Positions 4,538 through 57,566 of a DNA stretch of 64,000 nt are shown piece by piece. The stretch spans positions 32,925-96,924 of the forward strand of contig JBIIEL010000003.1 of the NCBI GenBank assembly GCA_044237845.1, in the 5' to 3' direction. Each line of letters begins with the position of its first letter. Position 1 is the first letter of the stretch. The notes under the pieces were generated by a model. That model was given only the letters and a program-made list of their open reading frames with translations, was not told where the DNA came from and made no database searches. The position numbers and the translations under genes are program-made. The DNA is from Rickettsiales bacterium (GTDB taxonomy: Bacteria > Pseudomonadota > Alphaproteobacteria > Rickettsiales > UBA3002).

Positions 4538-4585
4538 ATTATAGCCTATTTGGAGACGGACAAATATGACGTTTCTGTGACAATT
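4538..4585 (-). promoter_or_regulatory. Direct-repeat box + -10 (instance A) upstream of the ankyrin gene
   Basis: The minus strand reads aaTTGTCACAGAAACGTCATAT, then 20 nt, then TATAAT. An AGGAG-type RBS and the ATG at 4512 follow. Confidence 0.6.
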
Positions 4586-4628
4586 TCATCCCATTGCATG
4601 ATGCGCAGGGGGGCGCTATACTCCCCAA

Positions 4629-5084
4629 ATGGTTGATAAAGTAGGATATACCCGCCCGACAACGGCAATGCGTACTGCCGCAAAGGTAGGCAAGGCCGAT
4701 GGTGTGGGCTTTTCCAAGGCGCTTTCTGCCGCGCAGGCGGCTGCCGCGGCGGGTGAGGCTGCAGAGGCTGCCGAAACCACGGCGGTGGGTAGCGTGAACC
4801 CGTTCCTCGGCTTTCAGGAAGTGGATGATAAGGATTTCGAACGCCGCAAAGCATTCAAAAAAGGCCGGCTGACGCTCGAAGCCCTCTCGCAACTACGTGA
4901 CGCACTGCTGTTTGGTACCCTGCCGGTTTCGACCATCGAGAAGCTTGAGCGCATCGTGGCCGAGGAGCGTGGCACGACCACCGACCCTGTGCTCAACGGG
5001 ATTCTGGATGAGATTGAACTGCGCGCCGCAGTGGAGCTCGCAAAACTTGAAGTGGCGATGGGTGGTGCGGGTATTCGGGGCTAG
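4629..5084 (+). CDS. fliX: Flagellar assembly regulator FliX
   Basis: 151 aa. The C-terminal LNGILDEIELRAAVELAKLE and central FERRKAFKKGRLTLEALSQLRDALLFG match my recollection of alphaproteobacterial FliX. The gene is divergent from flgI, as in Caulobacter. Confidence 0.6.
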   Translation: MVDKVGYTRPTTAMRTAAKVGKADGVGFSKALSAAQAAAAAGEAAEAAETTAVGSVNPFLGFQEVDDKDFERRKAFKKGRLTLEALSQLRDALLFGTLPVSTIEKLERIVAEERGTTTDPVLNGILDEIELRAAVELAKLEVAMGGAGIRG

Positions 5085-5176
5085 CAGTTCTTGTGCATAG
5101 CTTTGCCATGCCGCTTGCCGAGACTTTAGCCTTTGGCGTATTTTGGCGGGATTATTCACCTACGGAGGCTGTCCCT

Positions 5177-5917
5177 ATGGCAAAGACTCAGGCGAAGAAA
5201 AAACCGGCTCCGGCCAAGAAATCCGCTCCGGCGAAAGCGGCGGCAAAAAAGCCCGCCGCGAAACTTGTGAAGAAGGCGGCGCCCGCAGCCAAACAAAAAG
5301 CCGCAAAACCAACAAAGACGGCAACCAAGGCAAGCAGCAAACCATCGCCCGCAAAAGCGGTGAAGCCAACCCAAACTGCAAAGAAAAGTTCAGCCCCTAT
5401 GACCAAGACGACGACTAAAGCGCCTGCCAAAGCGGCAGCAAAACCTGCCACAAAGGCTCCCGCAAAGCCTGCGCTCATCAAAGAGCGCCGCGAATATAAA
5501 CCGGCAAAGCTTCCCGCAGGCTATAAGCCCACGGCGAGCGAAGCCTATATGAGCCCGCAGCAGCAGGAATATTTCCGCCAGAAACTGCTTGCCTGGCGCA
5601 AAGAGCTCATGGACGAATCGCGCGAGACGCTCGACCATCTGCATGAAGAGAACTGGCATCAGGCGGACATTGCCGACCGCGCGGCACTCGAAACCGAGGC
5701 GGGCGTGGAGCTGCGCACGCGCAACCGCTACCTCAAGCTCGTCAGCAAAATCGACGCGGCGATCATGCGCATCGAAGACGGTGAGTATGGCTACTGCGAG
5801 GAAACTGGCGAGCCGATCGGCTTGAAGCGCCTTGAGGCGCGCCCGGTAGCGACTCTTTCTATCGAGGCGCAGGAACGCCACGAGAAGAACGAGAAGCAGT
5901 ATATTGACGAGGATTAG
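5177..5917 (+). CDS. dksA: RNA polymerase-binding regulator DksA with a ~100-aa Lys/Ala/Pro-rich N-terminal extension
   Basis: The C-terminal 140 aa (QQQEYFRQKLLAWRKEL...DGEYGYCEETGEPIGLKRLEARPVATLSIEAQERHE) is the alpha-type DksA with a degenerate Zn finger. The start is chosen at ATG 5177, which has GGAGG 8 nt upstream. The upstream part of track ORF 5093 lacks coding character. Confidence 0.85.
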   Translation: MAKTQAKKKPAPAKKSAPAKAAAKKPAAKLVKKAAPAAKQKAAKPTKTATKASSKPSPAKAVKPTQTAKKSSAPMTKTTTKAPAKAAAKPATKAPAKPALIKERREYKPAKLPAGYKPTASEAYMSPQQQEYFRQKLLAWRKELMDESRETLDHLHEENWHQADIADRAALETEAGVELRTRNRYLKLVSKIDAAIMRIEDGEYGYCEETGEPIGLKRLEARPVATLSIEAQERHEKNEKQYIDED

Positions 5918-6006
5918 TGGTGTTGCCTAGTGACTAGTGCCTTGTTTTTTCTGGTACTAGGCATCGGATTTCTTTATACTGACCGCTAGGCACTAACGAC
6001 TAGGCA
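5915..6006. repeat. Cluster of short repeats TAGTG (x3) and (A/G)CTAGGCA(C) (x3 direct, x1 inverted) in the dksA / PG-binding gene spacer
   Basis: TAGTGgtgttGCCTAGTGaCTAGTGcc ... gtACTAGGCAtc ... cGCTAGGCACtaacgACTAGGCACccccATG. The last two copies are 13 bp apart and abut the ATG at 6012, which has no Shine-Dalgarno. Confidence 0.5.
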
Positions 6007-6011
6007 CCCCC

Positions 6012-56289: not shown

Positions 56290-56335
56290 TTGTCATAAAA
56301 CCTTCATAAAACTCTGCATCAAGCAGTGCTATAGT
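56290..56335 (+). promoter_or_regulatory. Direct-repeat box + -10 (instance G)
   Basis: gaTTGTCATAAAACCTTCATAAA, then 21 nt, then TATAGTTAGGGTAGGAAAAACTATG. Confidence 0.6.
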
Positions 56336-56351
56336 TAGGGTAGGAAAAACT

Positions 56352-56927
56352 ATGGCCACTGCACCTACATCTTCTGCTGCCTCTGCTTCGACGTCTGCGC
56401 AAGCCGCGCCTGCGGCTACGAAAACGGGTTTCGATATCCTGCGCCCGTTCCGCTACGCGAAGGGTTTCCTCGGTGGCACGTTTGATTCGACCTTCAATAA
56501 CATGGCAAGTTGGGGTCGCAAGGGCTCTTGGCTGGGGCTGGGGCTGGCCGCGCTGGTGGTTATTTCGGGGGCACCCATTGTTGCTAGCGGACTTGGCGCA
56601 TTGGTCATGGGCTGGGCTGGCGGGCTGGTGGCGGGGGCGGTTGCTGGGGGCTCCGTTGGGCTGGTGACCGGCGGCGTGCGTGGCGTTAACCGCGAAATGC
56701 GCCGCGATAAATATTCCGAAGATCTACTCGCCAAAGCGCGCGCCAGTAGCCGCCCCGCACCGAGCGTCGATTACCGCGCCGCGCACCGCGAACATAAGGC
56801 ACGCGACGCCTATAACTATGATCGGCTTCTGCATCAGGAGCAGGAAATTAAAGAGCAAACCAGCAGCAGCTACTATCAGGACATGGTGAGCAATTCGCGC
56901 AATGGCAGCCGCGAGCGGGGGTACTAG
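56352..56927 (+). CDS. Membrane protein with a ~50-aa Gly/Ala-rich bilobed hydrophobic block (orphan, regulon member G1)
   Basis: 191 aa. Ala/Ser-rich N-terminus, then WLGLGLAALVVISGAPIVASGLGALVMGWAGGLVAGAVAGGSVGLVTGGVRGVNR, then a charged tail. Confidence 0.6.
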   Translation: MATAPTSSAASASTSAQAAPAATKTGFDILRPFRYAKGFLGGTFDSTFNNMASWGRKGSWLGLGLAALVVISGAPIVASGLGALVMGWAGGLVAGAVAGGSVGLVTGGVRGVNREMRRDKYSEDLLAKARASSRPAPSVDYRAAHREHKARDAYNYDRLLHQEQEIKEQTSSSYYQDMVSNSRNGSRERGY

Positions 56928-56930
56928 ATT

Positions 56931-57518
56931 ATGCCAAACGGTCAGGAAGTCGTAGAGAAAGTAACCGACGCTGTGAAAGAGGGCGGCGGTAATTTTATCA
57001 CCCGCCTGCTGATGGCGCCGATCAATGTGATCAGCGGCCTCGGCAAAGGGTTGTGGGATAACACGATCGGGAATCTCTCAGGCACGTTGCTGACCAGCGG
57101 TATTATTGCCGGGATTACGACATTCGCGCCGAGCTTGCTGGCTTGGCTGCCGTTTAAGGTGAATGGTAAAAAAGTTGGTGAAACACTAGGTGAAGATATG
57201 CGCAACGGCGGCACCGGGGCGATGCTGAAGGATTCGCTTCTTGCAGGCGCGGCGATTCAGGCGGTCATCGGCATGGGTAAGGGCGCGCTGAATGGGGTTT
57301 CCGGCGGGGTGGAAGGCGAAGAAAGCAGCTTCCTCGGCAAAACGGCCGGTTTTGTGGGCGGCGGGTTGGCGCTGGTCGCTATCGGCGCGCTGGTAAAAAA
57401 TTCGATGGATAAACACGGGGTCGGGTACGCTGGAAATTTTGATGAGGCGACCAGCAAGCAGCCGAACATCCCCCCGGCGGCAACGAACAATCAAGAGGTT
57501 AGCGGCAAGAATGCCTAG
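56931..57518 (+). CDS. Gly-rich membrane-associated protein (G2, co-transcribed with 56352)
   Basis: 195 aa, starting 3 nt after G1. Hydrophobic segments LLTSGIIAGITTFAPSLLAWL and FVGGGLALVAIGALV. Confidence 0.55.
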   Translation: MPNGQEVVEKVTDAVKEGGGNFITRLLMAPINVISGLGKGLWDNTIGNLSGTLLTSGIIAGITTFAPSLLAWLPFKVNGKKVGETLGEDMRNGGTGAMLKDSLLAGAAIQAVIGMGKGALNGVSGGVEGEESSFLGKTAGFVGGGLALVAIGALVKNSMDKHGVGYAGNFDEATSKQPNIPPAATNNQEVSGKNA

Positions 57519-57520
57519 AA

Positions 57521-57566
57521 TTGTCACAAAACCTTCACACACAGAGCCGAATGCCTGTGTTACTAT
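57521..57566 (+). promoter_or_regulatory. Direct-repeat box + -10 (instance H)
   Basis: aaTTGTCACAAAACCTTCACACAcaga, then 21 nt from the second half-site, then TACTAT. It begins 3 nt after the G2 stop. Confidence 0.6.

Follow-up and report, generated by a model that had tools for sequence, protein, structure and literature searches.

Pho-box-like direct repeats upstream of extended -10 elements mark a candidate orphan-gene regulon in relatives of basal Rickettsiales

Several bacterial regulators act through direct repeats placed upstream of the -10 element. PmrA of Legionella and Coxiella reportedly (Zusman et al. 2007) controls the genes of Dot/Icm effectors through cTTAATatT repeats that are arranged in tandem and keep a constant distance to the -10. 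For PhoP of Bacillus subtilis and Salmonella, TT(A/T/C)ACA repeats and boxes at alternative helical-turn distances from the -10 are described. Tandem repeats with an 11-bp periodicity represent the PhoB-type binding mode, in which the protein binds head to tail (PMC4415409). Control of type IV effectors by PmrA and CpxR has been noted, and in 2013 cis-regulatory sequences for alphaproteobacterial type IV effectors were mentioned as not described (PMC3814349). Here we analyse a stretch of 64,000 nucleotides (nt) from a Rickettsiales bacterium (contig JBIIEL010000003.1, forward-strand positions 32,925 to 96,924; called the window, to which all plain coordinates refer). It contains nine sites at which a direct-repeat box is followed at a fixed distance by a hexamer and faces a gene. 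With a probability of about 0.7, we consider these sites to be activator-dependent sigma70-family promoters carrying a box for a regulator of the OmpR/PhoB family.

Nine box promoters in the window

A preliminary description of this DNA had proposed that nine sites share one box, and we confirm that observation. Eight canonical sites were found by pattern, on the strands and at the places proposed: KTCAYR-N5-KTCAYR matched eight times in the window, against 0.42 +/- 0.61 expected (0 of 100 dinucleotide shuffles reached eight), and the stricter core TCAYA-N6-TCAYA matched six times, against 0.23 expected. A matrix trained on these eight sites recovered the ninth, degenerate one (26846-26862, minus strand), which lay outside the training set, at 20.1 bits. 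Apart from the nine sites nothing in the window scored above 10 bits, which bears out the remark that its other promoters lack the box. All nine boxes lie within the 7.5% of the window without called open reading frames, and all nine point to the adjacent gene; such intergenic placement would occur by chance with a probability of about 7e-11, orientation still uncounted.

Each box is built of two directly repeated half-sites of 6-7 bp that are phased by 11 bp and joined by an A-rich linker (window consensus aATTGTCACAAAAsCTTCACAcaca), and thus shows the tandem 6-7 bp repeats at 10-11 bp periodicity of OmpR/PhoB-type promoters. A hexamer of the TAnnnT type follows at all nine sites, 21 nt past the box at seven of them and 20 nt at two (36990 and 26846), and is preceded by TGn at five. 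The box is co-directional with the gene and occupies a fixed position that abuts or replaces the -35 element, without a consensus -35. Taking the start of transcription as 7 nt past the hexamer places the box at about -50 to -34. Scanning 50.0-58.7 kb for sigma70 -35/-10 pairs detected none of the five box promoters there. The sequence common to the sites extends over at most about 31 nt (repeat family D8). Counts, matrix scan and this short extent make the nine sites one cis-regulatory class, as had been proposed, and neither chance matches nor a mobile repeat. No known RNA family overlaps the sites, and this explanation was rejected. The promoters and their targets are the following.

4565..4581, minus strand: box 1, GTCACAGAAACGTCATA, tandem direct repeat with 11-bp phase, 31.7 bits, intergenic
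4538..4543, minus strand: -10 of box 1, TATAAT, 21 nt past the box
3826..4512, minus strand: target of box 1, 228 amino acids (aa), with one or two ankyrin-like repeats near the N-terminus, otherwise orphan; GC content at third codon positions (GC3) 0.48
26846..26862, minus strand: degenerate box, GTAACAAAACCTTAACA, TAA replacing TCA in both halves
26820..26825, minus strand: -10 of the degenerate box, TATAGT, 20 nt past the box
26831-26839, minus strand: alternative element at the degenerate site, TGCTATACT, 10 nt past TTAAC
25452..26804, minus strand: target of the degenerate box, 450 aa, ORFan (no family, no PDB relative); GC3 0.42
31675..31691, plus strand: box 3, TTCACAAAACTGTCACA, found by pattern and matrix
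31713..31718, plus strand: -10 of box 3, extended, TGG-TATATT, 21 nt past the box
31725..32426, plus strand: target of box 3, 233 aa, N-terminal SLT lytic-transglycosylase domain (PF01464, E 8e-14), without signal peptide
36990..37006, plus strand: box 4, GTCATGAAACTGTCACA, found by pattern and matrix
37027..37032, plus strand: -10 of box 4, extended, TGG-TATTAT, 20 nt past the box
37097..39001, plus strand: target of box 4, 634 aa, PG_binding_1 domain at residues 502-558, remainder without assignment
50309..50325, plus strand: box 5, TTCACAAAAACTTCATG, found by pattern and matrix
50347..50352, plus strand: -10 of box 5, weak, TAGAGC, 21 nt past the box
50373..50921, plus strand: target of box 5, about 180 aa, likely start at the ATG at 50382
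50952..50968, plus strand: box 6, GTCACAAAAGCTTCACA, kept in the sister genome (L085)
50990..50995, plus strand: -10 of box 6, TAGAGT, 21 nt past the box
51032..51250, plus strand: target of box 6, 72 aa, orphan, 79% identity in the sister genome
51348..51364, plus strand: box 7, GTCACAAAAGCTTCACA, the same letters as box 6, kept in L085
51386..51391, plus strand: -10 of box 7, extended, TGT-TATAAC, 21 nt past the box
51442..52071, plus strand: target of box 7, 209 aa, orphan
56292..56308, plus strand: box 8, GTCATAAAACCTTCATA, found by pattern and matrix
56330..56335, plus strand: -10 of box 8, extended, TGC-TATAGT, 21 nt past the box, then a short conserved leader, TAGGGTAGGAAAAACT-ATG
56352..57518, plus strand: target of box 8, two genes (191 aa and 195 aa), both for membrane proteins without family
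57523..57539, plus strand: box 9, GTCACAAAACCTTCACA, with orthologous promoters in 10 genomes
57561..57566, plus strand: -10 of box 9, extended, TGT-TACTAT, 21 nt past the box
57603..58666, plus strand: target of box 9, two genes (168 aa and 180 aa), the 168-aa product being a Gly-rich membrane protein

The gene labels of the preliminary description held for the SLT protein. The label "ankyrin" for the 228-aa protein is weak in Pfam (Ank, E 0.006, below the cut-off) but is backed by the consensus ankyrin structure in the PDB (1n0r, E 3e-9, residues 40-86). Among 5.8e9 proteins, the 450-aa protein matched only itself, and the 168-aa protein, which is the most widely conserved member of the putative regulon seen, had 10 homologues. 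The 191-aa and 195-aa proteins are 65% and 54% identical to their counterparts in the sister genome. The ATG of the SLT gene stands 6 nt after the -10, so that a leaderless mRNA is predicted.

Unrelated genes have the leader TAGGGTAGGAAAAACT-ATG behind their -10, both in the window (56336-56354 and 26801-26819) and in related loci (L003, L010, L018, L043, L053, L073, L113; L numbers denote the loci retrieved for comparison). It is probably a compact module of start site and Shine-Dalgarno sequence.

Conservation of the module and its host clade

A query 20-mer (ATTGTCAYAAAANCTTCAYA) built from four window sites was scanned against one genome per species and retrieved at least 112 loci; the figures below refer to the matches listed. 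Among these, 75 loci belonged to at least 40 metagenome-assembled genomes at species level, under the labels Alphaproteobacteria, Rickettsiales, Pseudomonadota or "uncultured Azospirillum". In 555 kb of these clade loci the window-trained matrix found 137 boxes, 84 of them ascertained by pattern and 53 extra, against 3.65 expected; chance was rejected on this excess and on the count in the window. A TAnnnT hexamer starts 21 nt past the clade box in 64 cases and 20 nt past it in 21, any other offset being seen at most 11 times. Independent metagenome contigs have the same offset peak (25 at 21 nt, 17 at 20 nt), and among matches to the 20-mer outside the clade only 4 of 37 have a hexamer at 20-21 nt. 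Box and hexamer thus recur as a module with unchanged spacing, both in 40 or more related genomes and in independent metagenome contigs, in line with the single promoter class that had been proposed.

The logo of the 64 sites consists of the box (clade consensus aATTGTCAYAAAAsCTTCAYAc), 14 uninformative positions and then TnTGnTAtanT, with TG in about 75% of the sites and no -35-like conservation. The full module therefore reads aATTGTCAYAAAAsCTTCAYAc-N14-TGnTAnnnT. In ten orthologous promoters of the 168-aa gene TGnTAnnnT is invariant, while the upstream flank is unalignable and the spacer variable. At 12 of 85 promoters, which belong to several unrelated gene families and include that of the window SLT gene, an ATG stands exactly 6 nt past the hexamer, that is at the canonical start position, and leaderless mRNAs are therefore predicted. 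The TGn extension and this spike of ATG codons confirm the hexamer as a real -10. The sites are a real promoter class with a rigidly placed upstream element, defined by its cis-element, geometry, conservation, -10 and start-site position.

A bipartite motif conserved at a fixed spacing superficially resembles a promoter specific for an alternative sigma factor, of which the box would be the upstream, -35-like element, and TTCACA is identical to TTGACA at 5 of 6 positions. However, the spacer between TTCACA and the -10 measures 20-21 nt, beyond the 16-19 nt tolerated by factors of the sigma70 family, and the element downstream, TGnTAnnnT, is an extended -10 of the standard form. Its recognition needs sigma regions 2.4 and 3.0, which extracytoplasmic function (ECF) sigma factors do not have. 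The upstream element, moreover, is a tandem duplication of a half-site at helical phase, typical of a dimeric DNA-binding protein. Because the spacer is too long and the extended -10 is of the textbook kind, we regard an alternative sigma factor as very unlikely.

Little credence can likewise be given to the idea that the box is a repressor operator, or a transcriptionally inert site beside an ordinary promoter. In its favour, many genuine E. coli PhoB sites are reported to be transcriptionally inert (PMC10294691). The promoters here have no -35, though, and would be weak alone; the box is always upstream, co-directional and rigidly spaced from the -10, which is a geometry of activation and not of occlusion. 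Strict conservation at orthologous promoters also argues for function. It is the missing -35 and the activation geometry that make this explanation improbable.

Apart from the clade, the same 20-mer stands in a near-identical sequence of about 70 nt in low-GC (about 30%) contigs of gut Clostridia (L125, L150, L154, L163, L174, L187, L192, L200, L238 and L009/L028/L064/L089). It represents a different conserved element, which may be a PhoP site of Firmicutes or a repeat.

Two of the genomes bearing the motif, UBA6149 and UBA6189, are named members of "Candidatus Mitibacteraceae", the deepest and apparently free-living branch of Rickettsiales, and UBA6149 has an orthologue of the 168-aa window target behind the same promoter. 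Published genomes of the basal families are often larger than 2 Mb, with a GC content of 40-52% (at most 61%, in Mitibacteraceae), flagella, chemotaxis, type IV pili and a type IV secretion system (T4SS) of the rvh kind. The window agrees with these descriptions: its GC content is 57%, and it encodes flgI, fliX and pilin-like genes besides a full set of housekeeping genes. It is syntenic with several metagenome-assembled genomes (MAGs) labelled Rickettsiales, at 70-80% nucleotide identity. Judged by its sequence, the window organism would belong to the same clade as the Mitibacteraceae-related MAGs, short of a formal placement. We take the module as the signature of a large predicted regulon in this uncultured clade of Alphaproteobacteria, related to "Ca. 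Mitibacteraceae" and thus to basal Rickettsiales.

The genome CAZGXX01 is the sister of the window organism, with housekeeping proteins 80-99% identical. Compared with it, two of the window targets are absent or replaced and the rest are 35-83% identical. The cassette of box 5 and its 180-aa gene (50290-50951) is missing from the sister genome (L085), and behind the conserved promoter of box 7 that genome has an unrelated 265-aa gene in place of the 209-aa gene; the products of nadE, gltX and cysS, which flank the swapped units, are 80-90% identical. GC3 is lower in the targets than in their neighbours. Such cassette behaviour, together with the low GC3, could be expected if the sites were copies of a small mobile or repetitive element, for example a miniature inverted-repeat transposable element (MITE), an element resembling repetitive extragenic palindromes (REP), or a phage or cassette promoter. 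The similarity, however, ends within about 31 nt and is not bounded by terminal inverted repeats; flanks are unalignable even between orthologues; every copy faces a gene at a promoter-like distance; and no integrase or transposase accompanies the units. In a viral collection of 2.9 million contigs there was a single match, which was a classical multi-box Pho promoter. Since the shared sequence is so short, the flanks do not align and the viral collection gave only this one match, we treat a mobile repeat or phage promoter as practically excluded.

The regulator and its possible identity

According to the explanation we prefer, the promoters depend on an activator and are read by RNA polymerase of the housekeeping (sigma70-family) type. 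The activator would be a winged-helix regulator of the OmpR/PhoB family, PhoB-like in its DNA specificity, which when activated would bind the box as a dimer arranged head to tail. The bound regulator would recruit or stabilise RNA polymerase via sigma region 4 and/or the C-terminal domain of the alpha subunit. With one regulator acting on a shared box, the whole gene set would therefore fire together on one signal. That the binding protein belongs to this family, that it activates and does not repress, and that the targets are co-expressed are predictions. The interpretation given in the preliminary description is supported as far as the sequence reaches.

Several results weigh against this explanation. 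Firstly, the box lies 20-21 nt from the -10 and not about 10 nt from it as in classical Pho promoters, i.e. one helical turn further upstream, as had been pointed out before. Secondly, window site 26846 is ambiguous with a CtrA box (see below). Thirdly, neither tblastn with E. coli PhoB nor a hidden Markov model (HMM) of OmpR-type DNA-binding domains found a gene for an OmpR-type regulator in the window, in agreement with the earlier statement that it is not encoded there. The search also covered 114 genomic loci (555 kb) and 120 metagenomic loci (771 kb), where no OmpR-type winged helix was seen near clade boxes, except for a pair of OmpR-like regulator and EnvZ-like kinase in the sister genome (L074, 2253-4305) that is unlinked to a box. 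Since no OmpR-type gene lies in the window or near the clade boxes, we infer the "PhoB/PmrA-like" family of the regulator from the architecture of the sites. Fourthly, a function in phosphate acquisition (pstSCAB, phoU, phoA/X/D, ugp, phn; phosphatase, transporter) was seen in none of the roughly 98 families of targets, made up of the 9 units of the window, 54 families from genomes and 35 from metagenomes, in a sampling biased to the module of two half-sites that may have missed pst promoters of the clade. Finally, the comparative loci were retrieved by the box itself, and conservation of the box sequence is thus partly ascertained, whereas spacing, TGn, leaderless starts and extra boxes are not.

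Outside the clade, L013 and L035 each matched PhoB, L026 had a response regulator and L198 gave a weak match. Receiver-domain matches in L101 belong to NtrC/NtrX activators of sigma54. A search with the edge genes of the window, meant to extend it, returned only short contigs.

Resemblance to the Pho box proved stronger than had been claimed. The box, TTGTCAYAAAAsCTTCAYA, is a close variant of CTGTCAT-N4-CTGTCAT, and the 20-mer derived from the window retrieves genuine pstS/pst promoters from Roseomonas, Shewanella, Glaciecola and others. It fronts pstS or other pst genes in L013, L035, L025, L052, L040 and L092 and a phosphate transporter gene in L065. In MAGs of Roseomonas, in two further MAGs of Proteobacteria and in Shewanella and Glaciecola, an identical box precedes pstS or pstSCAB-phoU-phoB, and in Acidithiobacillus it precedes a phosphate transporter gene; carriers of such pst-type boxes include two alphaproteobacterial lineages. 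Because the same 20-mer fronts genuine pst promoters, an orthologue of PhoB, if present, should bind the boxes, and the orphan genes would then represent a lineage-specific and greatly expanded branch of the regulon for phosphate starvation. The specificity of PhoB is conserved broadly, and Pho regulons reach virulence and lifestyle genes (PMC4415409). A few clade promoters (L038, L062, L188, L234) have extra half-sites or a second box at about 9-10 nt. Against PhoB stand the distance of 20-21 nt instead of about 10 nt, found at 9/9 window sites and 85/137 clade sites, and the limitation to exactly two half-sites at almost every site, with rare exceptions such as L062, where a further box lies at 9-10 nt. 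To this are added the lack of Pho-type functions among the target families and the observation that no pst or phoB gene adjoins a clade box, although the sampling could have missed one. Binding by orthologous PhoB, as a sub-case of our preferred explanation, is possible and we hold it tentatively.

A further sub-case is that another regulator of the OmpR family binds the box: an OmpR/EnvZ-like pair, a CenR-like protein or a CtrA paralogue of altered specificity (TTCA-N7-TTCAC for TTAA-N7-TTAAC). The sister genome does encode an OmpR-like regulator with its kinase, in the L074 operon mentioned above, but this operon is without a box. CenR sites of Rhodobacter are T[GC]AC-N7-T[GC]A direct repeats, co-directional and directly upstream of the -35, and front envelope genes, including those for peptidoglycan (PG)-binding and lytic proteins (PMC9275681). 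In geometry and in the kind of targets they resemble the sites described here. The CenR motif is nevertheless low in information, any TCA-N8-TCA matching it, and CenKR homologues are reported absent from Rickettsiales (PMC9275681). As for CtrA, the box differs from its consensus by one base per half-site, site 26846 being the TAA version, and box and canonical CtrA box share one conserved promoter in seven loci (L083, L095, L101, L131, L155, L180, L193); no CtrA paralogue was identified. We hold this assignment just as tentatively as that to PhoB.

The relation to CtrA deserves a closer description. Two point mutations separate the box type from the CtrA type, and eight window sites have TCA in both halves and so differ from TTAA-N7-TTAAC. 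Read as GTAA-N7-TTAAC, site 26846 differs from the CtrA box by a single mismatch and matches the consensus of CtrA no worse than that of the box. We count it as ambiguous because it has CtrA geometry, with TGCTATACT 10 nt past TTAAC, yet shares a near-identical TATAGT and leader (TAGGGTA...) with box promoter 56292.

An exact CtrA box occurs just once in the window, as the palindrome GTTAACAAGTCATTAAC at 51393-51409, which starts 2 nt past the -10 of box promoter 7. It covers the predicted start of that promoter and is not conserved in the sister genome.

In at least seven genomes or contigs (L083 at about 4918, L095, L101 at about 7863, L131, L155, L180, L193), one orthologous promoter consists of the box, 5 nt, a CtrA box, a G-run and a -10-like hexamer. 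Its CtrA box is TTAA-N7-TTAAC, or TTAA-N6-TTAAC in L180 and L193, and the hexamer is TAAACT in L083, L101, L131 and L155. The CtrA box lies about 10 nt from the -10, in the proximal slot, and the other box about three helical turns from it. This arrangement suggests joint control with the cell cycle.

A metagenomic box promoter (L128, 1778-2200) drives a DUF1465 protein (PF07323, E 3e-16), a family that we take to be RcdA, a regulator of CtrA degradation. This target is another possible link to the cell cycle.

Other known boxes were rejected for mismatch of half-site sequence or symmetry: the alphaproteobacterial LexA box (GTTC-N7-GTTC), the DnaA box, the RirA box and the marbox.

Target genes and comparison with known systems

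The preliminary description had noted that the targets lack housekeeping identity, and this was borne out. Among the first genes behind the nine boxes only three encode a recognisable domain (SLT, PG_binding_1 and ankyrin-like). The second genes of units 8 and 9 encode no domain, the other window targets matched no Pfam, NCBIfam, PADLOC or PHROG family, and PDB sequence searches of the targets returned only the ankyrin and PG-binding matches. AlphaFold models were of low confidence, with a predicted local distance difference test score (pLDDT) of 36.7 for the 228-aa protein (single sequence) and 44.1 for the 168-aa family (11 sequences). Elsewhere, Pfam matched about 4 of 54 non-redundant downstream proteins from clade genomes and about 6 of 35 new downstream families from metagenomes; PG_binding_1 recurs three times among the clade-wide targets. 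The targets have no N-terminal signal peptides, and about 40% contain internal hydrophobic segments. In summary, the cargo is lineage-specific and fast-evolving, and mostly without family or signal peptide.

Such cargo invites a reading in terms of secretion. The lifestyle of basal Rickettsiales is described as unknown and their T4SS as having "yet unknown effectors" (bioRxiv 10.1101/2021.08.31.458344; PMC11077975; PMC10847448); it has been proposed that they use the type IV system with effectors yet to be found, possibly PG-binding proteins. The box might then mark an "interaction" gene set of these apparently free-living bacteria, with dozens to perhaps at least 100 fast-evolving non-Sec genes per genome, exported by the ancestral rvh type IV system or another non-Sec route and controlled by a PhoB-derived regulator from a box one turn upstream. 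Targets without Sec signals, their SLT, PG-binding and ankyrin-like domains and their rapid turnover speak for it. On the other hand, the predefined C-terminal criteria of S4TE gave no enrichment in targets over neighbouring genes (basicity and charge, 77% versus 80% and 23% versus 34%), no T4SS or other secretion gene was seen beside a box, and no repeats-in-toxin (RTX) motifs were found in the targets. An Arg-rich tail at the C-terminus seemed suggestive on inspection, with Arg in the last three residues of 40% of targets and 24% of controls. We regard this reading as unlikely and put it forward as speculation.

A motif at the C-terminus, some 25 aa long and reading P-[ST]-x-[ILV]...[HY]-x-G-x-[VI]... 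with a basic end, is shared by the 168-aa protein (58041-58106) and the "MDQGF" family of 450-620 aa (L012, L033, L039, L094). It was found in 7/86 targets and 4/407 controls, with a pattern that was set post hoc and in only those two otherwise unrelated families. As S4TE gave no enrichment and the motif is limited to two families, a shared secretion signal is not claimed.

Some features elsewhere in the window were seen in passing. RpoD (820 aa; rpoD 27002-29464, repeats 27306-27529) has N-terminal tandem repeats rich in Lys, Ala and Pro (AKPAAK-like), resembling a histone H1 tail, and a long DksA homologue (274 aa; 5093-5917, repeats 5412-5478) has the same AKPAAK-like repeats at its N-terminus. 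Three paralogous genes of low GC3, all on the minus strand (11462-12292, 13007-13960 and 44760-45872), encode N-terminal methylation motifs like those of type IV pilins and are linked by repeat families D2 and D5. Between xerC/D and aroK, a GCAGC-rich repeat with a 9-nt period (33409-33813) would encode an Ala/Pro/Glu-rich repeat protein on one of its two strands.

Basal Rickettsiales, i.e. Mitibacteraceae and their relatives, are central to the origin of obligate intracellular parasitism. A clade-wide promoter module offers a handle that needs only sequence: it yields, genome by genome, a list of lineage-specific and putatively co-regulated genes, with one regulator and one signal to seek, and can be tested without cultivation. 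If the secretion reading were true, the motif would yield, by way of the regulon, a list of candidate effectors in the lineage that gave rise to the obligate intracellular Rickettsiales. The module is also a clean natural example in two respects: a Pho-box-like site is used together with an extended -10 in another helical register, and promoters remain in place although closely related genomes have exchanged the genes behind them.

As for known systems, the Pho box of the PhoB regulon (E. coli CTGTCAT-N4-CTGTCAT; PMC4415409) is nearly identical in sequence and likewise has two direct 7-bp half-sites, an 11-bp phase, an A-rich linker and no -35. In contrast, the box described here lies 20-21 nt from the -10 instead of about 10, occurs as a single pair of half-sites instead of arrays, has an extended -10 as the rule and precedes orphan genes. 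With the PmrA regulon it shares a single OmpR-type tandem repeat, a rigid distance to the -10, unlinked, fast-evolving and lineage-specific genes scattered among housekeeping genes, and a regulator encoded elsewhere. The half-site, however, is TCAYA and not TTAAT, so that these are not PmrA repeats; the lineage differs at the phylum level; the system reported for Mitibacteraceae is the rvh type IVA secretion system (T4ASS) and not Dot/Icm; and the C-termini of the targets here have no type IV-like bias.

The CenR regulon (TGA-N8-TGA; PMC9275681), known from Rhodobacter sphaeroides and further Alphaproteobacteria, also has a co-directional OmpR-family direct repeat directly upstream of the -35 position. 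Its targets are enriched for envelope proteins, PG-binding and lytic ones among them, and several of its listed sites read TCAC-N7-T[GC]A. Its motif is far less specific, though, and the genes under its control are conserved envelope genes of the housekeeping kind, whose products have signal peptides (tolQ, surA, mlaC); in the window, the matrix scan found no box at mlaD. The CtrA box (TTAA-N7-TTAAC) has the same 4-N7-4(+C) layout and an OmpR-family binder, and differs by one base per half-site; however, 8/9 window sites and the clade consensus have TCA and not TAA, and CtrA boxes of the clade lie 10 nt from the -10 and not 21. In comparison with the PhoP proteins of Bacillus and Salmonella, TTCACA and GTCACA fall within the TTNACA type and activation from one turn upstream of the -35 is a known class, although organisms and regulons are different.

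We found no mention in the literature of this promoter motif or regulon in this group. The mechanism proposed here, a response-regulator box combined with an extended -10, is of a known kind. What appears to be undescribed so far is this register of a Pho-type box, its role as the signature of a very large orphan-gene regulon, and its conservation across the relatives of basal Rickettsiales.

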